Source of the DNA: Planctomycetota bacterium
Lineage (GTDB): Bacteria; Planctomycetota; Planctomycetia; Pirellulales; UBA1268
Assembly (NCBI GenBank): GCA_031403195.1
Contig: JANNSZ010000095.1
Span: 4,681-68,680 of the forward strand
Direction: 5' to 3'
Length of the DNA: 64,000 nucleotides
The notes below the pieces were generated by a model. It ran no database searches. It was not told where the DNA came from and was given only the letters and a program-made list of their open reading frames with translations. This document shows positions 5,760 to 58,374 of the stretch, one piece after another (positions within the stretch are counted from its first letter, which is position 1; each line of letters opens with the position of its first letter). Made by a program: the position numbers and the translations under genes.

Positions 5760-7430
5760 TCAGTCGGGCTTCGGAATGACGGGTTCGAAGGGACGGACCC
5801 AGATGTTTCGGAACTGCACCGGGCTGCCGTGGTCTTGGAGCGAGATCGGCAGCGCGTCGGCATGCGGCTCGTACCCTGGCGGCACATGCCACTGCGTGCT
5901 GCCTTTGATCACGGTATCGGAGTGAATGGCCACTCCGTTGTGGATCACGCTCACGCGGGCCGGCTTTTCGACGAGGCCGTCAGAATCGAATCGGGGCCGC
6001 TTGAAAAGAATGTCGTACGTCTGCCATTCACCTGGGCGACGGCAAGCATTCACGGCCGGTGGCTGCTGCTTGTAGAGGGCGCCACATTGGCCATCGGGAT
6101 AGGTGAGCGGGCCGTTGGATCCATCCTCGTAGGAATCGAGAACCTGGATTTCATAGAGCCCCATCAGGAAGACGCCCGAGTTTCCCCGGTCCTGTCCTTT
6201 TCCCTTGGGCGGCGCTGGCATCCGAAATTCAACATGAACGTGGCAGTCTCCAAAACATTGCTTAGTCACGACTGACCCCTTGCCAACGGTGACCACGCCG
6301 TCCGCGACCTTCCAGCGGTCAGCATTGTTCCAGGCGACCATGTCGTGGCCATCGAAAAGCACAATCGCATCCGACGGAATCGCCGCTGGCTCGCCCGGTG
6401 GAGGACCCGGATCGACCACCTTTGGCCTCGGCCATTCGATGGGCATCCGCCATTCCTGTGAGCCTGCGTGCCTTCGGCCGCGCAACTGCAGCCGTCGGTC
6501 ACGAAGCGACGCCGTGATGAGCCGTGCCTTGGCTTCGGCGTCGCCCACGGCGAGCTTGCCCTTGATGCCCGGCCGACGGTGTCCTGCGGCTGCAACGTAG
6601 GCGTCGCGGAGGATCTCCATGCGCTTCGTGACATCCGGCACATAGGCCGCAAGCTGGTCGGGGAGATCGGTCGCCGTGGCCAACTCGTGATCACCGAGGC
6701 CGTCGATGATGGCTCGCGTGATCGCCAGATGGCCATCGGCTCCTGGATGCACGGCATCAGCGGCGAAGGCGAAATTCGGTTCAGCCTTCCGCCGCTCTGC
6801 GAGCGACTGCTTCATGGCCCCATGAACATCGATCACAAGCCAGCCGACTGACCGCTTCGAGAGGAGCCAATCGGCGTAGGCCGCAAGCACAGCGTCATAG
6901 TCAGTGTCTCCAGCTGGCCCCTTCGTGCCCGGTGGGCCGCCGTAGACCGGTGGCGTGAGGTGGATGATCGTGGCGTTGGCTTTTTCAGCGGCAGTGTGGA
7001 GCCGCTCGTTACCGCCCTTGAAAGCCTCGAATCGATTGTCATCGAGTGGCTGATAGATGCCGCAGTTCATGCCGTAGCACGTCAGAATGACATCCGGCCT
7101 CACAAGCCTGAGCACACGTTCAAGTCGCTCATGCAGGTCGGGCCGCGGAAACCTCCCGCCGGCATGACCTTCCTCAGAAAGCCCCGAGACAGTCTCACTC
7201 GGTAGGCCGCAGTTGATCACCTCGGCATCGAAACCCTCTCGCTCCATCCAGGCGGCGAGGTTGGCAACCCAGCCGCCGGCATGCGTAATCGAGTCACCGA
7301 GCACGAGCACCCGCTTGGCCGAGGCGAGCGTTTGACGGGCCGTCGGGACTTCAGCCGCCGCGGTCGCGAGCATCCCAAAAAAGAAGCCGAAAGCAGAAAG
7401 CCGCAAGCTGGCTGATGCGACACGAAACAT
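5760..7430 (-). CDS. SGNH/GDSL hydrolase fused to a DUF1080 (3-keto-disaccharide hydrolase-like) domain
   Basis: LGDSIT, YGMN, DAVHP (SGNH blocks); C-terminal LFDG, GNSGVF, YEIQVLDS, GEWQTYDI, LQDHG. Confidence 0.88.
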   Translation of the reverse strand: MFRVASASLRLSAFGFFFGMLATAAAEVPTARQTLASAKRVLVLGDSITHAGGWVANLAAWMEREGFDAEVINCGLPSETVSGLSEEGHAGGRFPRPDLHERLERVLRLVRPDVILTCYGMNCGIYQPLDDNRFEAFKGGNERLHTAAEKANATIIHLTPPVYGGPPGTKGPAGDTDYDAVLAAYADWLLSKRSVGWLVIDVHGAMKQSLAERRKAEPNFAFAADAVHPGADGHLAITRAIIDGLGDHELATATDLPDQLAAYVPDVTKRMEILRDAYVAAAGHRRPGIKGKLAVGDAEAKARLITASLRDRRLQLRGRRHAGSQEWRMPIEWPRPKVVDPGPPPGEPAAIPSDAIVLFDGHDMVAWNNADRWKVADGVVTVGKGSVVTKQCFGDCHVHVEFRMPAPPKGKGQDRGNSGVFLMGLYEIQVLDSYEDGSNGPLTYPDGQCGALYKQQPPAVNACRRPGEWQTYDILFKRPRFDSDGLVEKPARVSVIHNGVAIHSDTVIKGSTQWHVPPGYEPHADALPISLQDHGSPVQFRNIWVRPFEPVIPKPD

Positions 7431-9073
7431 TACTGCTGGGGCAGTGTTGCCCCCTCCCGGATGGCAAAGAGGTGGCTTTTGTTGGCAATGTAGAGCGTGT
7501 CCCCGACGGCGATCGGTGTGGAATAGACACTGTTGCCCATGTTGATCTCGCCGAGGATTTTCATTTCAGGAGCGATCTCAAAAATCGTGATGTCGCCGTC
7601 CTCATCGCCGATGTAGACCTTCCCGTCGGCGATGAGCGGCGAGCCCCAGGAAGCGGCGAGCATGTCGTACGTCCAGTGTGGCTTGCCCGTCTGCACGTCG
7701 AGGCAGTGGAACAGGCCGCTGAAATCGGCCACAAACAGAAGACCATTCTGGATCGCCACCGTGCCACAGGTGCGGTGCATCGTTTCCTCGAACGCGAGTT
7801 TGCCGTTACCGTCGGCGTCAAGGCCGGGATAGTGCCAGACCGCGGCCGAATTCGGGTTTGGCCTGGCCACCTCCCCATGTTCCTCGATGACTGCCTGGTT
7901 GCGGCGGTGGGGAAGCGGAGTCTTCGGATCTGTCAGGCTTACGGCGATTTCGCTCGAGATGTCTCCTCGCTTGGTCGGATCAATGCACCAGAGGTGACCT
8001 CCTCCTTCGCCATGCTCCGGATCTTCGCCGACCGCGATGTAGACGAGGCCTTCATGGACGACCGGGGTGCCAATAATGTGGTTGCGGTCGGCGCGGCCAC
8101 CGAGCGAATACTTCGACCCTTTGGGGTTACAGTCGAATTTCCAAAGCAGTTTGGCTTGCCCGTTCTCGCCGCGGGCGTCAAACGAGTACACCCAGCCGTC
8201 GCCACCACCGAAAATCGCCTGCGGAACACCACTGATCTCGGCGAATGCCGGGCTCGACCACTGGCCGTGGAGGATGTTGGCCCCCGGCGATCCGTCGGCC
8301 CAGAGAAGTTTTCCATCGCGCCTGTCGACGCAGAGAAAACTCGGTGCTTCGGTGTTGGGGAGGTTGATGTGTCCCTCGTCGACGCCGTTGCCGGTGATCA
8401 CAAAGAGCCAGTCACCGTGGCTCGTCACGCTGCAGGAGCACATGTTGTGCTGTGAGACACCGAGCTGCTTCATCATGTCGAGCGTCCAGACCACGTCGGC
8501 CTCGTCGTCGGCCATGACCTTTTCGTCGGTGAAAGGGCCGTCATTCTCGCCGTCTCGAAAACCTTCGGTGTCGAGGCACTTCACCTCACCGCGGCTGGTG
8601 ACATACCAGAGCCTGTCTCCCTCGACGAGCGGCGCACAGCAGATCCCTTGGAGCGGCCAGTCATGAACGCGGCCCGTGGGAAGCTTTTCGCTCGAGTCCT
8701 GCCAGAGGAACGAGCCATCCTTCACATCAAAGGCTAGGAGGCAGCCGAGGTCTGTCGCGGGTGGATAACGCTTGAGCCAGCCTCTGCCATTGTTGCTGCC
8801 GACGTAGACCTTTCCTCCCGCCACGACGGGATTCCCGTAGGACTGGCTTCCGAGGGCTGCAACCCAGACCACGTTCTTACTCGTGTCGGGTTTCCAGTCG
8901 CCCGTGTTTGGATCAAACTCGCCAGGCTCCCATTCGACCGGGAGATTTGTTGCATCTGACGTGTTGTTGCGGCTCGGTGAGCCGCCCCACTGGTTCCATT
9001 CGGCAGCCGTCACAAGTGCAAGCGGGGAGGCAGCGAAGAGCACGAGGACGGACACGAGCGATCGAAGAATCAT
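7430..9073 (-). CDS. PQQ-binding-like beta-propeller protein
   Basis: Signal peptide, WNQWGG, repeated S-P-x-x-x-G...W blade motifs. Confidence 0.85.
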   Translation of the reverse strand: MILRSLVSVLVLFAASPLALVTAAEWNQWGGSPSRNNTSDATNLPVEWEPGEFDPNTGDWKPDTSKNVVWVAALGSQSYGNPVVAGGKVYVGSNNGRGWLKRYPPATDLGCLLAFDVKDGSFLWQDSSEKLPTGRVHDWPLQGICCAPLVEGDRLWYVTSRGEVKCLDTEGFRDGENDGPFTDEKVMADDEADVVWTLDMMKQLGVSQHNMCSCSVTSHGDWLFVITGNGVDEGHINLPNTEAPSFLCVDRRDGKLLWADGSPGANILHGQWSSPAFAEISGVPQAIFGGGDGWVYSFDARGENGQAKLLWKFDCNPKGSKYSLGGRADRNHIIGTPVVHEGLVYIAVGEDPEHGEGGGHLWCIDPTKRGDISSEIAVSLTDPKTPLPHRRNQAVIEEHGEVARPNPNSAAVWHYPGLDADGNGKLAFEETMHRTCGTVAIQNGLLFVADFSGLFHCLDVQTGKPHWTYDMLAASWGSPLIADGKVYIGDEDGDITIFEIAPEMKILGEINMGNSVYSTPIAVGDTLYIANKSHLFAIREGATLPQQ

Positions 9074-45681: not shown

Positions 45682-46632
45682 TCAGCGGAGCTTGGCCGCG
45701 GGGGTGTCGGCAGCCAGGCGGTCGATCATGTCGCGGCAGGCTCGCTCCACGGCTGTCTGCCATTGGCCATCGGTGAGGCCGTTGGTCATGTCGGGTCGGG
45801 AGTGGGCGAAGATCACATCGCGTGCGCTGACAACGAGCGCCCCGAGGCCGTTGGCATGAAACGCTCCGCGAACGTCGGCGGCTCGACCACCCTGGCGGCC
45901 AAACCCCGGTACGAGAATCCAGGCGTGTGGCATGGCGGCGCGGAGATCATCGAGTTGTTTGGGCCAGGTGGCACCCACCACCGCGCCCACCGCGCCGTAG
46001 GGGCCGCCGGCAGCTGTGCGGGCAGCGAGCGCTTCCACACCGGAAGCGACATGTTCATAGATGGTTCGTCCGTCGCTCGTGAGATCCTGATAGTCCTTGC
46101 TACCCGGATTCGATGTTTTCACGAGGACGAAGATACCGGCACCGCGATGAGCCGCTGTCGTGACGAAGGGTTCCATCGAGTCCAGTCCAAGATACGGATT
46201 GATGGTGAGGGCGTCGGCTGCCCAGGGGCCTGCCAACCATCCGGCGGCGTAGGCGTCGGCAGTGGAGCCAATGTCTCCACGTTTTCCGTCAGCGAGCACG
46301 AGGAGCCCCGCCGCGTGGGCGTGGGCGATTACTTCGGCGAGCGCTGTCATTCCGTGCGGCCCGAGGGCCTCGAAGCAGGCGAGCTGCGGCTTCACAATAG
46401 GCACCAGTGCCGCGACGACATCGATCACGCCTTTGCAGAACGTCGTAAAGACCTGCGCGAGTGTGGAGGTGTCGGCCGCAGCGATCGTGGCCGCGCCGAG
46501 GGCCGGTGGGAGCGACTCGTGTCGCGGGTCGAGTCCGACGCAGGCGGGGGTATGGCGGGAGACGATGGCCGCGGCGAGCCTCGTGGCAAACGCAGGCTGC
46601 GAGGGATTCGACGAGGTGGATGCAGCGGTCAT
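45682..46632 (-). CDS. pyrF: Orotidine-5'-phosphate decarboxylase
   Basis: CVGLDP, DGKRGDIGST, NPYLG, KTSNPG, GAVVGAT, LVPGFGRQGG. Confidence 0.96.
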   Translation of the reverse strand: MTAASTSSNPSQPAFATRLAAAIVSRHTPACVGLDPRHESLPPALGAATIAAADTSTLAQVFTTFCKGVIDVVAALVPIVKPQLACFEALGPHGMTALAEVIAHAHAAGLLVLADGKRGDIGSTADAYAAGWLAGPWAADALTINPYLGLDSMEPFVTTAAHRGAGIFVLVKTSNPGSKDYQDLTSDGRTIYEHVASGVEALAARTAAGGPYGAVGAVVGATWPKQLDDLRAAMPHAWILVPGFGRQGGRAADVRGAFHANGLGALVVSARDVIFAHSRPDMTNGLTDGQWQTAVERACRDMIDRLAADTPAAKLR

Positions 46633-46733
46633 GGCTAGTTTGGCAAGCTCGTGTTGAAGCCGTTGAAAAATTCTGGGATAGTTTGTCGGTCGCGGGATGG
46701 CGATGCGAGAGCATGGCTGTTGTGCGGCGGATT

Positions 46734-46808
46734 CGGGGCGTGGCGCAGTTTGGCTAGCGCGCTTGACTGGGGGTCAAGAGGTCGCAGGTTCGAGTCCTGT
46801 CGCCCCGA
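46734..46808 (+). tRNA. tRNA-Pro(GGG), CCA not encoded
   Basis: Acceptor stem CGGGGCG/CGCCCCG, anticodon arm CTTGA-CTGGGGG-TCAAG, T arm GCAGG-TTCGAGT-CCTGT. Confidence 0.97.
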
Positions 46809-46893
46809 TTGATTGAAAGTGCTATGATTGAAGGTAGTTGGATACCCACCGACGGTCGGTGGTGCCCCTCGGGAATCCAGAGTTATCCGGTCA

Positions 46894-46918
46894 ATTAATA
46901 CGGTCTGACCGTATTAAT
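46894..46918. promoter_or_regulatory. Perfect palindrome upstream of the integrase (putative operator)
   Basis: ATTAATACGGTC-T-GACCGTATTAAT: 12-bp arms, ending 29 bp before the ATG. Confidence 0.6.
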
Positions 46919-46947
46919 CCCGGAGGACCGTTTTTTCGGAGGGCATC

Positions 46948-48246
46948 ATGCCACGTCGTACCAAGGGTTCTGTCCCATCTCTTCAGCACCACAAGTCCAG
47001 CGGCCGAGCCCGCGTCACCATCGCCGGCCGCGACTACTGGCTCGGCAAGTGGGGCTCAGCGGATGCGCAACTCGCCTACGAGCGGCTCATCGCCGAGTAC
47101 ATCGCTAACGGGCGAGTCATCCCTCCTCAGAGGGCAACATCTGATCGCGACACGGAAATCCGTGTGCAGTCCTCTCAGCCCGGCATCGCCGTCCGGGCCC
47201 CCGCGAAAGCGGACGCTCCAGATGGGCTCACGGTGGTCGAGGTCGTCACGATGTACCTCGACTACTGCCAGACCTACTACCGAGACCCAAACGGGAAGCT
47301 CACGAGCACGTACGGCAATGCGCTCCAGGCTGCCCGGGCGCTCCGTGTGTTTGATGATACGCCCGCGGCGACCTTCGGCCCCAAGAAGCTCGGCATGATC
47401 CGAGACTCGTTGGCGGCATCAGGTCGCCCTCGCGTGGGATGCAACAAGGTCGTGAAGAGCGTGCGGCGAGTCTTCCAGTGGGCCGAGTCGCAAGAGCTCG
47501 TCCCGCGAGGTACGCACAACTCGCTCAAGACGGTGGAGCCGCTCCGCAAGGGCCGCACGGTGGCCAAGGAGCTACCGCCGATCAAGCCCGTCGACGAGGC
47601 CACTGTCGATGCAACGCTCCCACACCTCCCGGAAGTCGTGGCTGATATGGTTCGGATCCAACGGCTCACCGGCGCTCGCCCGGGCGAAGTCTGTTGCCTG
47701 CGACCGGTGGATATTGATCGGTCCGGTCCGGATTGGAAGTGGCAGCCGCCACAGCACAAGAACAGTTGGCGGGATGCCGAACGCGTCATCATGATCGGGC
47801 CGCGAGCTCGCGAAATCCTCGAGCGGTACCTGGCGCGGGATGAGAAGGCGCACTGCTTCTCGCCGATCGATTCCGAAAAGATGCGAAGCCGTCGGCGCCG
47901 GCTCGAACGCCAGTCGCCGATGACGCCGTCTCAGCGGGCCAGGAAACCCAAGCGTAAGGGGCGCAGGCGACCTCGTGATCACTACGACACGGCCTCCTAC
48001 CGACACGCACTGACACGAGCCGTTGCTGCGGCCAATGCCGAGCGCCTAGCCAAGGACCCGACGGCCACACCGATCGAGGATTGGTCGCCAAACCAGTTGC
48101 GTCACGCTGCCGCAACTGAAATCCGAAAGAAGTTCGGGTTGGAAGCGGCCCAAGTCGTCCTCGGCCACACATCGGCGGACATCACGCAGGTCTACGCCGA
48201 ACGTGACCAGGCATTGGCAGCCGACGTCATACGGCAGATCGGATAG
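46948..48246 (+). CDS. Tyrosine recombinase/integrase
   Basis: LTGARPGEV (R), HKN (K), NQLRH, LGH, TQVY (Y); N-terminal arm-binding-like region. Confidence 0.95.
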   Translation: MPRRTKGSVPSLQHHKSSGRARVTIAGRDYWLGKWGSADAQLAYERLIAEYIANGRVIPPQRATSDRDTEIRVQSSQPGIAVRAPAKADAPDGLTVVEVVTMYLDYCQTYYRDPNGKLTSTYGNALQAARALRVFDDTPAATFGPKKLGMIRDSLAASGRPRVGCNKVVKSVRRVFQWAESQELVPRGTHNSLKTVEPLRKGRTVAKELPPIKPVDEATVDATLPHLPEVVADMVRIQRLTGARPGEVCCLRPVDIDRSGPDWKWQPPQHKNSWRDAERVIMIGPRAREILERYLARDEKAHCFSPIDSEKMRSRRRRLERQSPMTPSQRARKPKRKGRRRPRDHYDTASYRHALTRAVAAANAERLAKDPTATPIEDWSPNQLRHAAATEIRKKFGLEAAQVVLGHTSADITQVYAERDQALAADVIRQIG

Positions 48247-48251
48247 ACGTC

Positions 48252-48632
48252 CTATACCGGCGGCCCCTGCGGTCTCGACGCGCGAGTCATCGCGTCGAGC
48301 CTGCGGCGGGCCGCCTCGATTTCTTCACGGCGGCGTGTCGAGTGACGCTCGACATGAGTTGCAATCGGACGTTGGGCCGGCGACGCGAGCGGGGTAGCGG
48401 AAGCATCAGAACGGCTCCCTGCCTCAATGAATCGCTCGATCGCGGACACGGTGACAAATCGCTTGCCGCCGATGCAGACGCTGTCGAGCTTCACGCCCCT
48501 GCAGCCCTTCATGCACCAGCGGTACAGGGTCGAAACGTTTGGTTTTTTGTTTCCGGTGAGCTTGCCGATGTAGGCGGCAGCCTCGAGAAGGTTCAGCGGC
48601 CTCTCCTCGGCGAGTTGTTGAATATCGATCAT
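48252..48632 (-). CDS. Excisionase-like HTH protein (DUF1580-like)
   Basis: LNLLEAA...PNVSTLYRWCMKGCRGVKLDSVCIGGKRFVTVSAIERF; AAGGA Shine-Dalgarno 6 nt upstream; convergent with the integrase. Confidence 0.82.
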   Translation of the reverse strand: MIDIQQLAEERPLNLLEAAAYIGKLTGNKKPNVSTLYRWCMKGCRGVKLDSVCIGGKRFVTVSAIERFIEAGSRSDASATPLASPAQRPIATHVERHSTRRREEIEAARRRLDAMTRASRPQGPPV

Positions 48633-48646
48633 GGGAAATCCTTGAG

Positions 48647-48704
<58 letters not shown>

Positions 48705-48767
48705 ATATTGGCGAGCGATCACCGCTCGGTGTAGAAGCCAGATTTCGATGTGGCGCAGGCAACATGG

Positions 48768-49028
48768 TTACGTCACTGATTCCTCGACGAAGCGGATGAG
48801 GTCCTCAACGCGGTATCGCCGTATTGGCCGCTTGAATCCCGTCGCTACAAACTCGACACATCGAAGGCGGTCGCGCTTCACAAGAACGCGAAGGGTCTTT
48901 CGGCTTATGCAAAGCAGGTCGGCGGCCTCGTACTCGCTGATGAGGAGAGGCGGAGGCGCCTCGTACGGGCATTGATCGTCGTGCTCGTCAACGTTGCCGC
49001 ATGCTTCGTCGAAATTTTCATGATCCAT
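48768..49028 (-). CDS. Small HTH DNA-binding protein (HTH_17/Xis-like)
   Basis: LLISEYEAADLLCISRKTLRVLVKRDRL...RRYRVEDLIRF. Confidence 0.8.
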   Translation of the reverse strand: MDHENFDEACGNVDEHDDQCPYEAPPPLLISEYEAADLLCISRKTLRVLVKRDRLRCVEFVATGFKRPIRRYRVEDLIRFVEESVT

Positions 49029-49114
49029 GTTGCACCTATTGGCTGGAGGTTTATGGCGAGGCACAACTCTCGGCCCCACGCACGATTCCAATAGAGCGAG
49101 CCAGGGCCGTCGGA

Positions 49115-49137
49115 GGCGTTTTTCAGGGCGAATTTCA
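49115..49137 (-). repeat. 23-bp inverted repeat, left copy
   Basis: GGCGTTTTTCAGGGCGAATTTCA is the exact reverse complement of 50624-50646. Confidence 0.9.
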
Positions 49138-49216
49138 CGGTGACGCCAACTGGAGTTGGGTGGTGGGCCGGGTAGGCTGTGGCTAAAGGTCGCTACTCCC
49201 TCCAGGTCATTCAGTC

Positions 49217-50626
49217 ATGGCTGTCACACGAAAGAGCACTCGCCGATCCAAGCCTTCGCCAGCAACGTCGCGCCCCAGTCGAAAGTTAAACCCTAAGACA
49301 CCCGCGCGATCGGCTCCGATACGGCCATCAAAGAAGGCGAGTCAAATTCTCGACGCAGTGGGGGAGGCTGTCTCTCAGGCGCAGGTACTTGCGACGAAGA
49401 CGCAGGAGCAGTTCACTGCGTGGTCGTCACACCCGCCCACCACTGGCAATCGCCGAACGCGCTTTGCGAACACCCTCGAGAAGTGGGCGAATGAGTCGGC
49501 CGATATTGCCAAGGTGCTAGAGAGGGCTGAGAAGATCGAGGCCCAATTGCCGAAGGCTGTGGCCTGTGCTCCTGATGAACGTGCGGCAAAGATCATCTTG
49601 AAAGGGTTGAGAGCCGCAGACACGATTCGGTTAATGCGCGAGTTCTCCTTGACGGCGCGGTCTCTAGCTAATCGCGCCCGCAAACCACTCACTCCCGAGG
49701 ATGCCGATAAGGTTTGGGCGGATGCGTCAGACTTCGTCAAGCACCTCGGCCAAGTTGCTGATGACCTGCGAGAGATCGGGGCTCTCATCAAAGCCATGCG
49801 GGACCGTTTTCGAGATCCCTCCAAGGGCATCGACACGTCGAGCGACATGCTGCTTCCGGGAACCCCAAGTGTGGATCACTTGGAAGAGATGATCGAGAAG
49901 CTCTTGGGCATGATGCAATTTGCGAGTCAGGAGTTGTCTCAATCTGGGACGCGCGGCAGAAATTGCACGACCATCGCAGAACAACTCGAGGCGGCTATGT
50001 TTGCCGTCAGCCGATACGACGTTCAGTGCGAGTTGTTTCGAACATCAATAAAGGCAGACTCAGACCTGGCTGAGCTTCTCAAGCCTGGCTCCACCAATCC
50101 GTTTTCGCCGATAGCTGCCAAGATCAATGCGGTCATTGAAACGGCCACGCTTAAGGGCCAGTGGTGCAGGGGATGGTTGAATTTTGTGATCAGCCGATTC
50201 GATGCGGCCTGCGAGCTGCCTGCGGAGATGCCGATTCGACTGGCCAAAGGTGTCCATGACTTGCATGCTGTCATCAAGATAGCGAAACAGTGGCGCGGCG
50301 ATGGTGTTGCCGGCTCATCACTGGTCAAGCCGGTTGTCTATGAGCCTAGTCGCTTCCCCGAGGACTCAATCAAGGTGCTTCGGGCGCTTCTGGAGGATCC
50401 ACCTACATCCTCGTCGGTCCACACGATCAAGAGTCTGTCGAAGGCGACCGGCATCGGTGATCAGAAAATTCGTCGCACCCTTCTCAAAGTTCTCGGCCCA
50501 AAAGGGGCTCGTTTCGTTGTAGTGACGAAGCAATCGCGACGCGCAGGAAAGTTCTCGCCTCCCGACACGTACGCGATCCCGACGACTCTCATTGAAGTCG
50601 TCCGTGATCTGCTGACGAAACGCTGA
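49217..50626 (+). CDS. Hypothetical helical protein with a C-terminal winged-HTH-like domain
   Basis: 469-aa ORF; C-terminus IKVLRALL...TIKSLSKATGIGDQKIRRTLLKVL...TYAIP. Confidence 0.7.
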   Translation: MAVTRKSTRRSKPSPATSRPSRKLNPKTPARSAPIRPSKKASQILDAVGEAVSQAQVLATKTQEQFTAWSSHPPTTGNRRTRFANTLEKWANESADIAKVLERAEKIEAQLPKAVACAPDERAAKIILKGLRAADTIRLMREFSLTARSLANRARKPLTPEDADKVWADASDFVKHLGQVADDLREIGALIKAMRDRFRDPSKGIDTSSDMLLPGTPSVDHLEEMIEKLLGMMQFASQELSQSGTRGRNCTTIAEQLEAAMFAVSRYDVQCELFRTSIKADSDLAELLKPGSTNPFSPIAAKINAVIETATLKGQWCRGWLNFVISRFDAACELPAEMPIRLAKGVHDLHAVIKIAKQWRGDGVAGSSLVKPVVYEPSRFPEDSIKVLRALLEDPPTSSSVHTIKSLSKATGIGDQKIRRTLLKVLGPKGARFVVVTKQSRRAGKFSPPDTYAIPTTLIEVVRDLLTKR

Positions 50627-50646
50627 AATTCGCCCTGAAAAACGCC
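50624..50646 (+). repeat. 23-bp inverted repeat, right copy (contains the ORF stop codon)
   Basis: TGAAATTCGCCCTGAAAAACGCC. Confidence 0.9.
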
Positions 50647-50755
50647 CCCATTGCCCGACGTCTGGGATACCGGAAGCGTCGGCCACCTGTTGCAGCGGCT
50701 TCGTTGCGGGTGGGCGGGATTTTTTAGCAAGCGGCCTGAAAGGGCCGGGAAAAGG

Positions 50756-51694
50756 ATGGGCGTTATGGAGCTTGATGAAGGCTTCTCAGACGAAGCATGG
50801 GATGAAAATGCTGATTCAGGTTGCGAGATCAGCCGGGGTAGCAGTCCGGGCGAGCGAGATGATGGCGCGGTAGGTGTCGCCGATGATGTGGCGGCCCGTG
50901 TGGTGGATGAACCCGCGCCGGATGCCGTTGATGGCGGCGGTGATGGCGACATCGATTCGGCAGGTGCTACTGGCCGCGAGCCAGCTCAACCTGTCTTTGA
51001 TGAACGCGAGGCAATCGTAAATGACAGGGCCCGGGGGCCAGCTCATGAGATCGCCGTGAAGGTCGAGGAAGTCGCAGCCATTCATGGCTTCATGATCGAC
51101 CTCGACTGCGGAATTCTCAATCCTGATGTTCTCGGGGCAGACGCGGTGGCTTCTGCCGAGGCGCTCTACAACGAGCATGTGAGCCACTGGCTCGACCGTG
51201 ATCCCGTGCTGGCGAAAGCAGAGGTACGTGATACGGGCGGCGGCCTCCACGTGCTATTGTGGCTCGACCAGCCGATCCTGTGCGGTAGTGAAGAGGCTCG
51301 CGAATGGGACGCCATTGCCCGCGGCATCCGCAATGCTCTCCCGGGTGACCCGAGCGTGAATGGCATCATTGCCATGACGCGACCGGTGGGGGCGCTGAAT
51401 ACCAAGTATGAGCCGCCTCGCGAAGTTCGTCAGCTTCGCGAGGGGCACCCAATCACGCGCGATGAGATTCTTGCCTTCGACCGACGAGTGACCGATCACC
51501 CGGCGCGATTATGGATGACGGTTTTCTGTGGTGGCGAGCGTGTGTCACCGTGCCCGATGTGCCGGGCCGAGGGTTCATCGCTCGGTGTGGCGGGCAGCTG
51601 GCAGTGTCGGTGTTACGGGTGTGGGCGGGTTAGTGCCGCCTCGCTCGTCTATCGGTTTTTTTCGAACGACTTCCTTACGAAACGAATGGGGTGA
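50756..51694 (+). CDS. AEP-superfamily primase (RepB'-like) with a C-terminal Zn finger
   Basis: Motif I FMIDLD, motif II DTGGGLHVLLWL, D...TRPVGALNTK; CPMC...CYGC. Confidence 0.75.
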   Translation: MGVMELDEGFSDEAWDENADSGCEISRGSSPGERDDGAVGVADDVAARVVDEPAPDAVDGGGDGDIDSAGATGREPAQPVFDEREAIVNDRARGPAHEIAVKVEEVAAIHGFMIDLDCGILNPDVLGADAVASAEALYNEHVSHWLDRDPVLAKAEVRDTGGGLHVLLWLDQPILCGSEEAREWDAIARGIRNALPGDPSVNGIIAMTRPVGALNTKYEPPREVRQLREGHPITRDEILAFDRRVTDHPARLWMTVFCGGERVSPCPMCRAEGSSLGVAGSWQCRCYGCGRVSAASLVYRFFSNDFLTKRMG

Positions 51695-51698
51695 TGAC

Positions 51699-53612
51699 AT
51701 GGTGAGTTTTGCTGACTTTGATAGCCGTGGTGACCACAACTGGATCGTGCGAGACCTGAAGGCGGCACGTGCCGCGCTGGTGGCAGTGGAGCGGGGGTGT
51801 ACCCGTCCCAAGCTGATCTCGAGCGTGACGCCGGCGGGCCAATTTATTGGTGATGCACACGAGACGATTTTCGAGGTGATGGGCCATCTTCGTGGGTCCG
51901 GCCGACTCTATCGGCAGGGAAATACGACGATCTTCCTGCATGGCCGCACCAGGCCGGACGGTAGCTGCGGTCCGACGCCGATCGTAGTGGATGGCATCGT
52001 CACCAAAGTGGCCTCGCCGATCATCGGCAACGTGCTGATGTGCCGGGCCCTCAAATCCAATCCGAGTGGGAAGGGGGCGAAGGCCGATCAGCCGGTGGAG
52101 TACGAGACCCAGTTTCCGGTGCCTCTGCCCGTACTCCAACAGGCGTTCGTCTCGGACGGCAGCATGGACGAGATCCCTGAGGCCCGGTACATCGTCAATC
52201 ATCCTGTCTACGACAAGGATTTCACGTGGCTGGATGTCGGCTACCACGATCTGCAACGCATCCTCGTATGCGGAGAGTCGTTTGAGCCTGTGTTCCTGGA
52301 CCCGCCGCGGTTCGAGACACCGCCTATAGAGGTTGCGGACGTCCTTAACCGGTTGCCACCGCTGATCCGCCGAATGGTTGAGGGCTTCCACTGGAACGGT
52401 GCCGTTGACCTCATCAACTATATAGGTGCGGCACTGATGATCCCGCTGATGCCGGCGCTCGTCGAGGATGGTCACCCGGGTGTGATGTTTTGGGGCAACC
52501 AACCGAGCATTGGAAAATCACTCGCCGCCCAATGCCTCGCCATTCTGAAGGACGGCGAGCAGGCATCGCCGACATCAGTAGAGGGTGGCGCACGCGAGGT
52601 TGAGAACCAGATGGCGAGCGAGCTCAACGATGGGCGGACGGTGCTTTTTATTGACAACCAGAAGGGCATGCTCAATATCCCGATCATTGAAGCCAACATG
52701 ACGGCCAAGCAATTAGCTATTCGTGGTTTTCACGTCCAGAAAAAGGTGCGGCGGCCCAACGACCTGCTCTGGCTCATCACGACGAACGACGCCATGCCGA
52801 GCGATGACCTCCTTTCGCGATGCATTCACATTCGATTGTGCTACGAGGGGCTGCCAGATTCGCATCGGTTTGCCATGTCGGACGGCGAGCTTGTGGCTTT
52901 TGTCAGCCACAATCGATCGGCCATCCTGGCCGAATTTGCAGGCATGATCGGCGCGTGGTTGGCGGGTGGACGGCCTGAAGCCGGATCACCTTGTCGCTTC
53001 GCCATTGCCGGTGGCGTGATCGGCAGCGTGCTCACCTACAACGGACTGTCCGGGTTCTTATCGAATACCCGCGAGGAAATCCGTGAGAACTCTGCTAAGC
53101 AACAGCAGTTGATCGAGCTTGTGGGGCGGATCATCGACAGCCGACTGCCAGGGTTCATGTGGGAGATCGATGGCGACATCGATGTAGCCGATGCTGTGTT
53201 CAAGAAAGAGGGGCCGCCAAAGAGCCCAATGGAGCAGAAGGACTGGGTGCCATACCTCATAGGAGTAGGCGCGATCCCCCCGTCGTGTGACACGCCCCAG
53301 AAGCAGAAGAAGGCCGTCACGCAGTACATGGGGAGCGTCGTCAAGGTGCCTATTGAGGTCGCATATGGCGAGGTGACGGTGCAGGCCATGATCGTGAGTC
53401 GCCCACTGCGAAGCCGGCGGTCGTGCTACGTGCTTGCCGTGTGCGGTCTGCCGCCGGCACCAGGGGGCGCACCGGAGAGTAGCAGTGACCCCAGTTGGCT
53501 CGCCGGCGCCGACGCCGACGACGAGGCTAGCACCGAGTCGGCCGCTGACATGCCCGACGATGAGGCCGGATCGGCTGACATCAAGGAGTTGGGTGAAAGT
53601 TTATGGGATTAA
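51699..53612 (+). CDS. Primase-associated P-loop ATPase/helicase
   Basis: Walker A GNQPSIGKS, Walker B VLFIDN, sensor ITTN, DDLLSRC arginine finger; starts 4 bp after the primase stop. Confidence 0.75.
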   Translation: MVSFADFDSRGDHNWIVRDLKAARAALVAVERGCTRPKLISSVTPAGQFIGDAHETIFEVMGHLRGSGRLYRQGNTTIFLHGRTRPDGSCGPTPIVVDGIVTKVASPIIGNVLMCRALKSNPSGKGAKADQPVEYETQFPVPLPVLQQAFVSDGSMDEIPEARYIVNHPVYDKDFTWLDVGYHDLQRILVCGESFEPVFLDPPRFETPPIEVADVLNRLPPLIRRMVEGFHWNGAVDLINYIGAALMIPLMPALVEDGHPGVMFWGNQPSIGKSLAAQCLAILKDGEQASPTSVEGGAREVENQMASELNDGRTVLFIDNQKGMLNIPIIEANMTAKQLAIRGFHVQKKVRRPNDLLWLITTNDAMPSDDLLSRCIHIRLCYEGLPDSHRFAMSDGELVAFVSHNRSAILAEFAGMIGAWLAGGRPEAGSPCRFAIAGGVIGSVLTYNGLSGFLSNTREEIRENSAKQQQLIELVGRIIDSRLPGFMWEIDGDIDVADAVFKKEGPPKSPMEQKDWVPYLIGVGAIPPSCDTPQKQKKAVTQYMGSVVKVPIEVAYGEVTVQAMIVSRPLRSRRSCYVLAVCGLPPAPGGAPESSSDPSWLAGADADDEASTESAADMPDDEAGSADIKELGESLWD

Positions 53613-53645
53613 CCCATACGTCGCCATGGGCTCTGTAGCCCATGG

Positions 53646-53960
53646 CGATGGTGAAGTGGTGAAGACATGGTGAAGACCCAAAAATCAGTCTTCACCATCG
53701 TTTGGATGCAGAACACTAGGCCTTTTTGAGAAAGTGGTGAAGTGATGAAGACAAAAGACAGTGTTGGGACAGCAAATCAATCGAGGCATCTCATGCCTCC
53801 AGGGCACGCTACCGGAACGCCCCTCGGAACGAATCCAGCCGGACATGGTGTTTCATCTTCACCACTTCACCATTCTTCAAAAACCACTGGAAAACAAGTC
53901 CCAAACGACGGTGAAGACCCAATAAACAGTCTTCACCATGTCTTCACCACTTCACCATCG
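53646..53960. repeat. Iteron-rich long inverted repeat (putative replication origin)
   Basis: ~105-bp arms built from TGGTGAAG units; outermost ~32 bp perfectly inverted; internal hairpins ggtgaagac-N10-gtcttcacc. Confidence 0.8.
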
Positions 53961-56213
53961 GGCGGCTTCCTGCTTGCCTTCGGTGCGGCCCAGTACCCGT
54001 TTCGGCGCTGGGTGCCCGCCTATGGTCGCGTGATCACCGGCCGCTTCGCGCTGGACACGGAGACGACCCTCATCGATGACACCCGGCCGGCCAGCATTCC
54101 CGCGCTCGTGCTTGGCATGGCCTTCGATGGGCAGCAGGGTTGGTTCGTGACGGCCGAGGACATGCCAGCGTTCCTTGCCGCACACCCATCGAACCAGCTG
54201 ATCTTTCACAATGCCGCCTTCGACCTAGCGGTGCTCCAGGCGACTTTTGACCGTCGAGGGATAGCCGCCGACGTCTATGCCCGTGTCGAAGCCGGTCGGG
54301 TCGCAGATACCCAGATCCTTGCGCGGCTCATCTCGCTTGCCACAAATGGCCACACCGCGCGTAACCAGTGTTCCCTCGACTACTGCTCCCAAAAATACCT
54401 TGGCGTCGCGCTTCCCAAAGACCTTAAGACACCGGGCGGCGAATGTGTCCGGCTCACCTTCGGCAGATACCATGGCCGACCGTTTGAAGCGCTACCGGTC
54501 GAACACTTGACCTACGCCGCGATGGATCCAGTGGCGACACTCCTGCTGTTCGACCGGCTGAAGGCTGAAATCCCCACGATCAAAGCCAATGCGTATCAGG
54601 CGTTTGGTTACGCGGATGAAAGCTGGCTCGCACGGCAATGGAGCACGCACGGGCCCCTCACGCACGACATTCAACTCAAGGCCAGCATCGTCCTTTACCA
54701 GCTCTCGCGTACGGGTGTCTTGATCGACCAACGCCGCCGCGAGGAGAAGGTGGCGACTCTGCAACACGTCGTCACTGAAACCCGCCGGATGCTCGCGCTA
54801 GCCGGACTTCCAGTTGAAGGCAAAGGGGCCAAATCAGCTCTCCTCAAGCGCATCGAAAGGTTGTCTCGCGAGCATAAGAACCTACCACTCATCCACACGG
54901 AGTCTGGCCAGATAGCAACGAGCGAGGAGCAGCTCAAAGAACTCACCGTATTGGATCCCGTGCTCGATGTCTTACTCCAGCATCGGCAAGCCACAAAACT
55001 TCTCTCGACCTACGCCTCCAAGATGCATCCGGGGAAGCGCGTCCATGGCAAGTTCAACTACCTCATGAGCACCGGCCGGACGAGTTGCGGCGGCGGGTTC
55101 AACCTCCAGAACTTGCCGAAGGAACTCGACGCCACCAGCAACCACGAGACGACGATCCGCGGCTGCTTCGTGCCGGCGCCTGGAAAAGTTTTCGTGGTGG
55201 TGGACTACGCCCAGATCGAGTTGGTCGTGCTGGCGTGGGCCTGGAAACACCAAATGGGCTTCGGGGACAGCCTTCACAAGATCGTCACTAAGGGCCGCGA
55301 CATGCACCGGCTCATCGCGGCGGAAGTGCTCGGCAAGGATCCAGCCGACGTCACGAAGCAGGAACGCAATGCTGCCAAACCTGTATCGCTCGGTCGCCCT
55401 GGTGGTCTTGGCTGGAAAACGATTCAGAAGCAGGCCTTGAATACGTACGGCGTCGAGCTGAGCGAGGAGCAGGTCCGTGAGCGGATGCAGGCGTATGAGA
55501 CCCTGTGCCCGGAGCTGACCGAGCACCTGAAGACCCGCGTGGATGCCGGTCTCGAAATCGCGCAGGCACTCGGGATGACGCTGCTCGCCTACAACGCTGC
55601 ACGCGGCAAGCCTACGCGCTATCCTAAGGTCACTGATGAAGAGCCCACAGGTTGGCTCGGCGGCATGCTCATGAAGGTTCTTGAATCGCCGGGCCCCATG
55701 ACGCGAGGCAACAGCGATACGAATTCATCACCACGGCTCTACACGCCCCAGGAGACCAACTTCTTCTGGACCGCGGCAGAGAGGCTTTCGGCATTCGGGC
55801 TCGACGAGAAGCACATCAAGGACATCCGGGCCCGAAAGCCATCACGGTCACTTCGAGATGCCGTGGCCGGGATCTTCAGTCGCGAGCCCATCATCACAGC
55901 AACTGGCCGCATACGCGCAAATGCCAGCTACTCCGCATGTAGAAACGGAATCATGCAGGGACTAGCCGCTGACGGTGCGATTCACGCGCTCTGGAAGCTC
56001 ATGCGGGCCGGCTACACGATCACCAACTTCATTCACGACGAAGTGATCATTGAGGTGCCTGAGGATGAAAATCTCCCTGCCACGATCGCCGACATCGAAC
56101 GGCTCATGAAGGAGGGTATGCAGGTTGTGGTTCCTGGCGCCAATGTCCGCGTGGAGACTTCGGTGCGGCGGTCGTTTAGCAAGGCGGACGAGATTGCTTC
56201 GGCGAGCCCATGA
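53742..56213 (+). CDS. Family A DNA polymerase (3'-5' exonuclease plus polymerase, no 5' nuclease)
   Basis: ExoI LDTETT, ExoII HNAAFD, ExoIII YAAMD, TGRTSC..NLQNLP, motif A DYAQIEL, motif B RNAAKPVSLG, motif C IHDE; start uncertain. Confidence 0.92.
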   Translation: MMKTKDSVGTANQSRHLMPPGHATGTPLGTNPAGHGVSSSPLHHSSKTTGKQVPNDGEDPINSLHHVFTTSPSGGFLLAFGAAQYPFRRWVPAYGRVITGRFALDTETTLIDDTRPASIPALVLGMAFDGQQGWFVTAEDMPAFLAAHPSNQLIFHNAAFDLAVLQATFDRRGIAADVYARVEAGRVADTQILARLISLATNGHTARNQCSLDYCSQKYLGVALPKDLKTPGGECVRLTFGRYHGRPFEALPVEHLTYAAMDPVATLLLFDRLKAEIPTIKANAYQAFGYADESWLARQWSTHGPLTHDIQLKASIVLYQLSRTGVLIDQRRREEKVATLQHVVTETRRMLALAGLPVEGKGAKSALLKRIERLSREHKNLPLIHTESGQIATSEEQLKELTVLDPVLDVLLQHRQATKLLSTYASKMHPGKRVHGKFNYLMSTGRTSCGGGFNLQNLPKELDATSNHETTIRGCFVPAPGKVFVVVDYAQIELVVLAWAWKHQMGFGDSLHKIVTKGRDMHRLIAAEVLGKDPADVTKQERNAAKPVSLGRPGGLGWKTIQKQALNTYGVELSEEQVRERMQAYETLCPELTEHLKTRVDAGLEIAQALGMTLLAYNAARGKPTRYPKVTDEEPTGWLGGMLMKVLESPGPMTRGNSDTNSSPRLYTPQETNFFWTAAERLSAFGLDEKHIKDIRARKPSRSLRDAVAGIFSREPIITATGRIRANASYSACRNGIMQGLAADGAIHALWKLMRAGYTITNFIHDEVIIEVPEDENLPATIADIERLMKEGMQVVVPGANVRVETSVRRSFSKADEIASASP

Positions 56214-57532
56214 GCAGATACGAAAAACCGAGGCGCCGAATCCAGGTGCCTGTTCGTCTCGGTATCCGTCGTGACCACTCTCCTACGGTTACGGGAGAAA
56301 CACCTCCACCTTAAGCCCCAGGAGAAACCGCCATTCCCTGTGTTCGATCGAGAAAGCCCGCCTTGAAGAACACCACTACGAGCCCATTTCGTCCCTACCC
56401 ATCACCACCCAGAAGCGCCAAGAACCAACCACCCTCGCTCCAAAACCGATTCCCGCCTTCTTATCAAACATCACACGAGCCCCAAATTCGCTCCCTAAGC
56501 CCCGAATTCCAGCCAAAGGTCTCTCCACGCCTAGAACACCCTAATAACCCGTTAGAAGCCAAATGCGGGCCTCCTATCGCCACACAACGCCGCGACCCAG
56601 AACTGCGTGAATGACCTGGGCTAGAAACCACCATCAGCCCGAATTTATCACTCTCATTCGCCGCTCTTTCCGCCGTCATCCGCAGAAATGTTATCACTTC
56701 ATGCCGTATTACTTTCTCCCACCATCTCTAAAATCAGCCACCAGCACGCACGCTCAAGAAATGCCTAAAAAGCAGGCATGATAAATTCCACTGCTTCTTT
56801 CGTGAGCGTTATATTTCCTAGGCGTGCTGCGGAATAACGGCGGGCTTAGCGGCGGCTCTTATTACGCTCTAGATGTATTTGGCGTAATTCGAGAAACGGG
56901 GAATAACAGCAAACGCACAAATGGGGTTATTCCGGAAATGTAAAAGCCTCGTAATTCATTATAAACAGAATTGGCGTTATTATGTCTTGTGCGAATAGCC
57001 GCCACGAGAAATGTTAATTTATCACCACGCGAAGCCAGGGCCCACGAGCCAAGCCAAGTAACCCGAGCATGGAGCCAGGGACAGCACGCGAGCTTCATTG
57101 GGGCGTCAGCGAATTTCACAAAGAGTGCGAAGGCAAGGGAGCGAGACCGGCGAGAAAGCCCCCAGAAACCAGCCAAGAAACGCACTCGAGGGAAAGCCAG
57201 GAACGAGTCGCGTGGTTTCTCCTCCCCCATGAACGCCACCAATAGCACCGACCCCTGACTCTCTTCCCGCCTTCATCCCGTCTGTCGCGTAAAAAATGCC
57301 AATGCCAAGGCGGTCAAGGTGCGAACAGCTAAATCCTGCTCAAAAACCGGGCATATGAAGGGATAGCGGATAGTAGTCAGCGAGTAGGCCCCAGAGCCAT
57401 CGCATTCTCAAGCCGGCCAGCCCCATCGCGATTCCAGCCGGCGATCGCTCCCAAACCCAGCCTGTGAAATTCCGCTGGCTCTCGCTGGCTCTTTCGCCGC
57501 TCTTCCCCGCCCTCATTCAGGAGAACCTTTCA

Positions 57533-57709
57533 GTGACCCCATTTGTTTTGTGTGCCCTGCTTTCCGTCGGCCTCGCTCTCGCCCTCGCTCGTGAAAGCCG
57601 ACTCCGCAGGGCTCTCCAAGCTCTCGTCGGCAGGCTCCTCAACCAACTCAGAAATCCCCCACCCGAATCTTTCACTTCTCGCTCACCTCAATATCGGAGA
57701 CGCGTATGA
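57533..57709 (+). CDS. Small membrane protein
   Basis: AGGAG Shine-Dalgarno, GTG start, hydrophobic helix then RESRLRRALQAL; stop overlaps the next ATG. Confidence 0.65.
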   Translation: MTPFVLCALLSVGLALALARESRLRRALQALVGRLLNQLRNPPPESFTSRSPQYRRRV

Positions 57710-58374
57710 CCAGTTTCATTTTTCTCATCGCTGCGTTCTGTGCCTGCTGCTCCTGGCTCGTCTGGCTGTTATGGCGAGTGCTCATGCTCGCGTTCATGTC
57801 GTTCCGCAGGGCCGCCAGAATTTTCACGCTCGGTATTTGCGCAATTGCCGCGTGCACCCCAGGGCCAGTTCATGCAGGCTGGTTTTGGGGACCCGATCCG
57901 AAAGTAGAAGCGGCGAACCAGGCTCTTCAAAGCGCTGCACAGATAGCGACGGAAGCAGCGCAGACTCAATCAGCCCAGCAGGCACAACTTCTTCACGCGA
58001 TCGAGCAGCTATCCAGTGAGCGAACCCACCTGGCAAACCATCTGCGGAACCTTGGTGACTTTTCGCAGCGTGAGTCTGTATGGGCGGCTGCATTGAACGC
58101 GATAGGCCCAGTGCTCGTTGCTGTGAGTGTCCTGATGGTCGCGGTCATGGCTTTGTATGTGCAAGCCAAGGCGAGCCCAGGTGATTCCCAGGCGGCAGCG
58201 GCTCTCGTTGAAGAAATCCTGAGTCCCCAAGGTTCGCTCTTCGTAGGCGGGCATCAGGAACCGGGAATAGCCCAGCACGAGAAGCAGCAAGAGAAAATCG
58301 CCGGCAGGAAATTCTCAGGGCTCGAGCATGCGTACCCAGACTCTTCACCACACACCCAGGACATGCCCTTCTAA
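57706..58374 (+). CDS. Membrane protein with a coiled coil
   Basis: N-terminal hydrophobic segments, Q/A-rich coiled coil, further TM helix. Confidence 0.75.
   Translation: MTSFIFLIAAFCACCSWLVWLLWRVLMLAFMSFRRAARIFTLGICAIAACTPGPVHAGWFWGPDPKVEAANQALQSAAQIATEAAQTQSAQQAQLLHAIEQLSSERTHLANHLRNLGDFSQRESVWAAALNAIGPVLVAVSVLMVAVMALYVQAKASPGDSQAAAALVEEILSPQGSLFVGGHQEPGIAQHEKQQEKIAGRKFSGLEHAYPDSSPHTQDMPF

Follow-up and report, generated by a model that had tools for sequence, protein, structure and literature searches.

Putative operators in planctomycete mobile elements: a conserved mirror-image pair of 23-bp sites around a gene for a predicted winged-helix protein

The mobile elements of Planctomycetota, like gene regulation in this phylum, are almost unstudied. 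Within a 64,000-nt stretch of contig JANNSZ010000095.1 (hereafter the window), which holds part of an integrated mobile element, two perfect 23-bp inverted repeats enclose a single gene, for a 469-aa protein referred to here as P0001, and the locus thereby raises the question of what such a pair of sites does. The original prediction, made from the letters of the window, offered two answers: paired operators or promoters that co-regulate excision and replication, perhaps bound by the enclosed protein, or the ends of an invertible or exchangeable cassette. Here, a comparison of six elements favors a version of the first answer. It is considered modestly probable that the 23-mers are mirror-image, polar, bipartite operators of the switch region of the element, bound by an element-encoded protein, for which the product of the neighboring HTH_17 gene is the favored candidate.

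Position and internal structure of the repeat pair

When the window was scanned with the 23-mer TGAAATTCGCCCTGAAAAACGCC, two matches were obtained at up to 3 mismatches, compared with 0.00 expected from 100 shuffles. Both were free of mismatches, one lying on the minus strand at 49115-49137 (site L) and the other, its mirror image, on the plus strand at 50624-50646 (site R); as features, the sites were assigned no strand. The same two copies and no others were found in the whole 3.91-Mb assembly (113 contigs), for which a reversed-pattern control returned 0. The perfect repeat measures 23 bp; in a repeat search, a longer, imperfect match of 37 nt at 84% was obtained. Site R opens with the TGA stop (50624-50626) of the open reading frame (ORF) of P0001 (49217..50626, plus strand). 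Thus, the predicted pair of perfect repeats was confirmed, as was the claim that the right copy supplies the stop codon of the enclosed gene. Site L lies in a divergent region of 188 bp, 86 bp from the ATG of the HTH_17 gene and 79 bp from that of the 469-aa gene, and site R is separated from the next ATG (50756) by 109 bp.

Each 23-mer is built of two direct 11-bp half-sites, TGAAATTCGCC and then TGAAAAACGCC, which are 12 bp apart; at site L these read GGCGTTTTTCAG+GGCGAATTTCA. Both copies can be summarized by the half-site GGCGWWTTTCR, repeated head-to-tail in a 12-bp register. The sequence TGAAANNCGCC matched the window five times, with 0.71 matches expected, and four of the five were the half-sites of the two 23-mers. 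Half-sites of the form SCGWWTTTCR occurred eight times (2.49 expected), four of them inside sites L and R, and four times (0.20 expected) in L083, the related locus of genome G818, all four inside its two sites. Across the loci examined, half-sites were essentially confined to the paired sites. A lone half-site, GCGAATTTCA, is present at 57109-57118 of the window, where the GC content of the element is lowest (0.525 at 56-57 kb), and may reflect chance or a third, monomeric site.

With regard to RNA-level features, an Rfam scan of 46000-58000 returned tRNA but no other RNA family, transcript folds around the two sites were no better than those of shuffles (z -0.9 and -0.7), and a simple terminator scan gave no candidate downstream of the 469-aa gene.

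Conservation of the sites in related elements

The element of the window was compared with five others, designated by genome and locus: G401/L006, G818/L083, G929/L100, G849/L101, and G915/L102. The G818 element is syntenic with the window and shares tRNA-Pro(GGG); its integrase, DUF1580 protein, HTH_17 protein, and 469-aa homologue are 61, 60, 63, and 26% identical, respectively, to their window counterparts. Here, ACCGTTTTTCAGACCGTTTTTCA is found upstream of the homologue and the mirror site ACCGTTTTTCAGGGCGTATTTCG overlaps its TGA stop. The G929 element is laid out likewise: ACCGTTTTTCAGGGCGTTTTTCA is found upstream of the homologue, and ACCGTTTTTCAGGGCATATTTCG is located at its stop codon. 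On the G401 contig, assigned to Planctomycetaceae and recovered with a smaller family alignment (A3), the HTH_17 protein is 54% and the 469-aa homologue 31% identical to that of the window, the integrase is unrelated to that of the window, and insertion is at tRNA-Gly. The site GGCGTTTTTCAGGGCGTTTTTCG, which is 20/23 identical to the window site, lies between the two divergent genes and is the sole strongly conserved block of their intergenic region; the contig stops before the 3' end of the gene. In G915, ATCGCTTTTCATTTCGGTTTTCAC was observed between HTH_17 and a gene that is truncated by the end of the contig.

The G849 element encodes an HTH_17 protein that is 57% identical and, divergently, a 472-aa protein, P0087, that is distantly related to the 469-aa family. 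The links are a tblastn match to the G818 protein (E 7e-6), an hhalign match over N-terminal motifs (E 2.6e-4), and 25% identity over the full length to P0015, itself a weak match of the family profile. An unbiased repeat search of this locus returned, as its top inverted repeat, TTCGGTTTTCAGTTCGCTTTTCACC at 6674-6698 and 8273-8297 (25 nt, 92% complementary), a pair that brackets exactly the P0087 gene. Its half-site is a variant, TTCGSTTTTCA, with TTCG in place of GGCG. Given that the distal arm is situated 58 bp past the stop codon of P0087, overlap with the stop is not essential.

The original prediction had held that absence of the repeats from homologues would tell against it, and the opposite was observed: the left site is present between HTH_17 and the 469-aa homologue in 6/6 elements, and the mirror right site at the 3' end of the homologue in 4/4 elements in which that end is visible. 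Every site of the six elements consists of two half-sites in a 12-bp register, with outer-to-inner polarity identical throughout, and the core CGNTTTTCA is conserved. The enclosed gene is divergent from HTH_17 in 5/5 elements. Across four elements, site L is the only strongly conserved intergenic block, the surrounding non-coding DNA having diverged. The HTH_17 protein and the 469-aa family are the only proteins common to all elements. HTH_17 is the best-conserved protein of the module (pairwise identity 51-72% over the six elements); pairwise identity in the 469-aa family is 23-34%, except for the 78% between G818 and G929. Integrases and replication modules differ between elements, and the genes past site R, where visible, are primase or replication genes (in the window, in G818 as Prim-Pol and DUF3987, and in G849 as primase-like). 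Because they appear to have been kept under selection as a pair, the sites are best regarded as functional cis-elements and, on these comparisons, are neither an assembly artefact nor a recent insertion.

Several members of the 469-aa family, P0003, P0010, and P0011 among them, share the C-terminus ...(R/K)(K/N)TP*. In G818 and G929, the final codons and stop of this tail are encoded by the first half-site together with the TGA of the second. It may thus be the DNA site that gives rise to the common tail as a side effect, and the tail offers a hint that site R is present in further family contigs.

Perfect 23-bp inverted repeats placed exactly around one gene would also be expected if the segment could invert, or if they terminated an insertion sequence with the 469-aa protein as its transposase, but either origin is barely tenable here. 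Just two copies exist genome-wide, and the flanks show no direct duplication (...GTCGGA versus CCCATT...). The repeats are placed orthologously around proteins that are 23-34% identical and have diverged alongside them. The predicted all-helical bundle and winged helix of the enclosed protein match no transposase or recombinase family or fold, and family and fold comparisons of P0001 revealed nothing transposase- or recombinase-like. Ends of an insertion sequence or transposon were rejected on these grounds: no transposase, no target-site duplication, no further copies, and an orthologous position in diverged elements. Nor is inversion supported as originally proposed. The bracketed segment has the same orientation in 5/5 elements; a contig of sequencing run X1 spans 48713-53500 in the window orientation, and in run X2 the region is covered by two overlapping contigs. 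No joints or inverted contigs were detected in three sequencing runs, although only contigs were searched and rare inverted forms would escape. Pfam and PHROG comparisons identified no serine or extra tyrosine recombinase in or beside the bracketed segment, and integrase conservation does not extend to all elements in which the sites are kept. With one orientation, no inverted contig in the runs examined, and no invertase conserved with the sites, the invertible cassette of the original prediction is not supported and is considered very unlikely.

The idea of an exchangeable cassette fared differently. It had been expected to place different genes between the same repeats in relatives, but the same gene family was found there in every relative; the enclosed family is constant and not swapped. 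A border at site R was nonetheless apparent from the close pair G818 and G929. DNA identity between these elements is 82-83% up to site R (inside the gene) and 95% in site R, and falls to 61-64% directly past its outer edge, where the shuffled background is 61-62% (junction coordinates, L083 3262-3283 and L100 3859-3880). Past the junction, G818 carries a 148-aa gene and a Prim-Pol/DUF3987 protein, and G929 an unrelated gene. Given that identity drops at this point, site R forms the right border of a conserved core (HTH_17, site L, gene, site R), and what survives of the exchangeable cassette is that site R is the border beyond which unrelated replication modules start.

This mosaic junction could mean that the sites are mainly evolutionary joints, at which homologous or illegitimate recombination swaps neighboring modules. 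The gradation between the window and G818 points the same way, with 60 to 63% identity for the integrase, DUF1580, and HTH_17 proteins, 26% for the enclosed protein, and unrelated genes past site R. We nevertheless regard this explanation as improbable. The junction would be equally expected if the site belonged functionally to the left module, the breakpoint was seen in one close pair only, and the family between the sites is the same everywhere and so is not itself swapped. In addition, a recombination joint would require neither tandem half-sites nor strict polarity.

Look-alike sequences were also encountered. Matches to the site with 1 mismatch in 13 other genomes of the phylum (0 in the reversed control) were set aside as coding coincidences, since each falls in an ORF of at least 200 aa and has no second copy at the locus. 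L076 (G313) and L077 (G039) share GGCGTTTTTCGGCGCGTTTTTCGGCGC at 1501-1523 of each, within an ORF of ∼296 aa; this is a look-alike that is probably coding sequence. Motif scans of viral contigs (59 and 11 loci) gave none with a full tandem site plus a mirror copy, and tblastn with the family proteins on L084-L094 (the 11-locus viral scan) and L067-L079 (the phylum-wide pattern loci) gave no match.

Candidate binders and the putative operator pair

The HTH_17 gene (48768..49028, minus strand; start at ATG 49028, from alignment) is divergent from the 469-aa gene and encodes an 86-aa protein resembling excisionases and recombination directionality factors (RDFs). It matches Pfam HTH_17 (E 8.4e-7; 29.6 bits, with a cut-off of 27) and phrog_66, “excisionase and transcriptional regulator” (E 1.1e-4). 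HTH_17 is favored as the binder because its helix-turn-helix (HTH) and wing hardly vary, which matches the constancy of the core CGNTTTTCA in the sites. It is favored over the enclosed protein because the winged helix of the latter can scarcely be aligned across the two types of site. That a protein binds, which protein it is, and that transcription is affected are what we infer from these comparisons.

In the arrangement envisaged, the two half-sites of each site (consensus NNCGNWTTTCR) follow each other head-to-tail at roughly one turn of the helix, which would place two protein subunits next to each other on the same face of the DNA. Site L would act in the divergent control region between the HTH_17 and DUF1580 (excision-side) genes and the 469-aa gene, and site R, at the end of the latter, would head the leader of the replication genes. 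Outward polarity is alike at both sites, leftward into HTH_17 and DUF1580 and rightward into the replication genes. One element-encoded protein could thereby regulate the excision-side and replication-side units jointly, and the same protein could bracket, and possibly loop out, the 469-aa gene. The simplest explanation for the conserved inverted arrangement is that mirror sites let one protein govern both outward units. Of the answers offered by the original prediction, paired operators or promoters co-regulating excision and replication fit best, with the sites conserved around proteins that are 23-34% identical; its suggestion that the enclosed protein is the binder holds less well, HTH_17 being at least as good a candidate.

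The enclosed protein itself was characterized by sequence and structural comparison. P0001 has a basic, disordered N-terminus, a long-helix bundle (residues 39-360), and a C-terminal winged helix (382-468). It passes no Pfam threshold, and its family, which is rare, is without a Pfam model; HTH_29 was weakly matched by 4/12 family members (best E 8.6e-5). A word-indexed search of 5.8 billion proteins yielded 2 relatives, and the family has 12 full-length representatives (E ≤ 1e-30) among 1.84 billion proteins. No match was found in 400 other sampled genomes of the phylum, bar a weak C-terminal match in G272 (E 9.4e-5), and a search of 400 genomes from the class, among which 4 belong to the genus itself, also gave none. 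Searches with the family alignment or with P0002 gave no relatives in metagenome contigs, viral contigs, or a first scan of genome contigs. An AlphaFold2 model of P0001 has a mean predicted local distance difference test (pLDDT) score of 75.7, and its C-terminus follows a helix-helix-helix-strand-strand order (H382-393, H404-411, H415-426, E435-437, and E451-453). By VIA-align, residues 372-469 were matched to the N-terminal domain of Rio2 (Z 11.3, root mean square deviation 2.2, 86 aligned) and the C-terminus to the MarR-family chains 6pco (Z 10.7), 3oop (Z 10.2), and 5h3r (Z 9.7), and the central part to generic helical bundles only. Foldseek of the model against the Protein Data Bank (PDB) gave nothing at E ≤ 0.001, the ESM Atlas no usable match, and a PDB sequence search only weak coiled-coil and winged-helix matches. 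A MarR-like winged-helix DNA-binding domain at the C-terminus of P0001 is thus supported as a prediction, and the earlier labeling of the gene product as a winged HTH protein stands, on the modeled topology of 382-468 and winged-helix alignments at Z 9.7-11.3.

Such a domain could make the enclosed protein the binder, its winged helix contacting both mirror sites while the helical bundle bridges them, with its own gene looped out (autoregulation) and the replication module insulated. In 4/4 elements for which both ends could be seen, the 469-aa family gene is bracketed by the sites, and in every element examined sites and family occur together. Conservation of the C-terminal domain ranks among the highest in the family alignment, the most divergent homologue (P0087 of G849) is paired with the most divergent half-site (TTCG versus GGCG), and mirror polar sites would suit a bridging oligomer of two-fold symmetry. 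Against this, the core CGNTTTTCA is kept even though the winged helices of P0087 and P0001 can barely be aligned (hhalign covered N-terminal columns 75-192 only), and the putative recognition helix varies (DQK, EQK, and AYTA) among elements with near-identical sites. Moreover, MarR-like domains are usually dimeric on palindromes and not on direct repeats. On balance, binding by the enclosed protein is possible, if somewhat unlikely.

Several observations weigh against the operator pair bound by HTH_17. Only two half-sites are present per site in all elements, whereas the well-studied factor Apl needs at least three adjacent operators (see below), and the half-site period is 12 bp rather than 10-11. 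No SCGWWTTTCR half-site occurs between the tRNA and the integrase, on the side of the left attachment site (attL), where a true RDF should also bind; the right attachment site (attR) lies past the contig end. The sites always accompany the 469-aa family, which itself has a winged helix and could be the binder instead. A promoter scan of 46500-54500 gave 2 promoter-like sites, none near the repeats, and no convincing sigma-70-like promoter was seen outside either site in the window. Finally, all relatives are metagenome-assembled genomes of a single phylum, within which two taxonomic families account for 5/6 elements.

In both G818 and G929, a sigma-70-like TTGGAC-18-TAGGTT was recognized by eye 13 nt inside site L. 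As a weak lead, the site would lie at about -49 to -71 of a promoter of the enclosed gene in these two elements; the window is without a clear motif of this kind.

Operator clusters one to a few kb apart that are served by one regulator and enclose regulatory genes are familiar from OL-OR of lambda CI and the flanking sites of 186 CI. The lambda and 186 CI operators are palindromic and bind dimers; the sites described here are polar direct repeats, and it is the pair that is mirror-symmetric.

Binding to direct repeats spaced by roughly a turn of the helix, at attachment (att) sites and also in switch regions, is known from RDFs (PMC7498355). Apl of phage 186, Cox of P2-like phages, and the P4 factor are RDFs that also regulate early switch promoters; Apl has seven operators at pR-pL and five at att, and at least three adjacent ones are needed for efficient binding (PMC7498355). 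The present locus resembles these systems, as far as they are described there, in that a small HTH protein gene adjoins the integrase and direct repeats are spaced at roughly a helical turn (PMC7498355). The Apl and Cox repeats lie between opposed early promoters and couple excision with the developmental switch (PMC7498355). By contrast, two repeats are found per site here, in a 12-bp register and with none seen at attL, and two mirror sites 1.5 kb apart bracket a whole gene. The HTH_17 gene is also transcribed away from the replication genes, and the likeness drawn here is one of features.

RdfS of the Mesorhizobium element ICEMlSymR7A is an oligomeric winged-HTH RDF that binds attP and its own promoter, coordinating its own expression, integrase expression, and excision (PMC11963761). 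The RdfS sites, as presented in that account, are without a consensus motif (PMC11963761), whereas the half-site reported here is sharply defined and conserved across diverged elements. The Pseudomonas aeruginosa antiterminator AlpA is an HTH protein of which one molecule binds a 6-bp GGGACG between -35 and -10 (PMC9371919). AlpA is likewise a small HTH regulator in a prophage-like module and acts at a promoter-linked element ahead of a leader (PMC9371919, PMC7969949), but the binding mode described for it involves no tandem repeats and no paired mirror sites (PMC9371919).

A full-text literature search on DUF1580 found no paper, and no description of this architecture was found in the literature on DUF1580 or on Planctomycetes prophage integrase/excisionase. 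Switch operators of mobile elements are a known kind of mechanism, of which the variants that are new here are the bracketing by a mirror pair, the protein family, and the position at a mosaic junction. What the analysis provides is a DNA motif that is well delimited and conserved, two proteins as candidate binders, and an architecture shared among elements, together with an example of a mosaic junction that falls on a putative regulatory site. If the pair does control excision and replication together, it would be the master switch of this element family, and it could supply a regulatable promoter/operator part for planctomycete genetics. A more ambitious and distinctly unlikely proposal is that HTH_17, site L, the fast-evolving helical and winged-helix protein, and site R form a portable “switch cassette” of planctomycete mobile elements, of a type not described before, in which the enclosed protein would bridge the mirror-image sites, loop its own gene, and gate excision and replication, with the sites serving as joints for swaps of integration and replication modules.

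The element and its other genes

The locus is a tRNA-integrated, self-replicating mobile element, the far end of which lies past the end of the contig. The integration target, tRNA-Pro(GGG) (46733..46809, plus strand; ARAGORN, and Rfam tRNA at 62.6 bits), marks the attL side, and GC falls from ∼0.65 to ∼0.58 to the right of it. In a search for the right attachment site, the DNA 3' of tRNA-Pro in a genome of the same genus, G641, gave no match in this genome. A tyrosine integrase of 432 aa follows (46948..48246, plus strand; Pfam Phage_integrase, E 8.9e-12; phrog_1, E 4.6e-26), which is 63.5% identical to the G929 integrase as compared with the 61% given above for G818. The DUF1580 gene, for a small HTH-like protein (48252..48632, minus strand; Pfam DUF1580, E 1.8e-14), was assigned a start at M31 of ORF 48252-48722, the residue from which the 60%-identical G818 homologue aligns.

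To the right of site R, the first gene encodes a 312-aa protein (50756..51694, plus strand), an ORF without a Pfam or PHROG match and with no relation to the protein at the matching G818 position. It is followed by a 694-aa primase/helicase-like replication protein (51528..53612, plus strand; phrog_10537, E 2e-20; phrog_19930, “DNA polymerase/primase,” E 1e-5), which has no Pfam match, and by a family A DNA polymerase with a 3'-5' exonuclease (53742..56213, plus strand; Pfam DNA_pol_A, E 1.3e-35, and DNA_pol_A_exo1, E 1.1e-8; phrog_17, E 3e-74). An AAA ATPase gene is encoded farther right, past the polymerase.

Between the primase/helicase-like and polymerase genes, repeats of the GGTGAAG type, direct as well as inverted, are densely packed at 53646-53960. 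Among them are arms of 60 nt that are 85% complementary, exact 18-nt copies in inverted and in direct orientation, and direct repeats of 30 nt at a distance of 241 bp. This array looks like an iteron-type replication origin or control region and is a candidate for either. It covers the first ∼70 codons of the longest polymerase ORF, and because of this overlap with the 5' part of the ORF, the true start of the polymerase is probably farther downstream.

The array also bears on a further explanation of the 23-bp pair, namely that the two sites are iterons of a split origin flanking the gene for an origin-binding protein. The sites are short, repeated, present in both orientations, and beside replication genes, and the enclosed protein is predicted to bind DNA; a parallel for a split origin is provided by ori/crr of P4. 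However, it is the HTH_17/469-aa core that the sites accompany, whereas the replication modules are wholly different from one element to the next, and 53646-53960 is a far better origin candidate, which renders a split origin at sites L and R very improbable.

A palindrome was noted just 5' of the integrase gene, at 46894-46918 of the window, ∼7085-7115 of L083, and ∼27-52 of L100. Its center, GGTCTGACC, is conserved, and its arms vary but stay complementary (ATTAATAC.../...GTATTAAT, AAAGATGG.../...CCATCTTT, and ATTAATCC.../...GGATTAAT). It is either a hairpin placed behind the tRNA as a terminator or insulator, or an operator through which a dimer would act on the integrase gene.

The contigs of the two runs in which the element is present stop at 48641 and restart at 48713, in the 5' part of the DUF1580 ORF, and the gap at 48642-48712 was flagged as a skipped repeat in the contig comparison. 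In a freshwater metagenome from another study (run X3), two 151-nt pieces identical to the 469-aa gene (49692-49842 and 49935-50085) were present at low depth. Given this identity, the same or a very close element exists outside the probable source samples.

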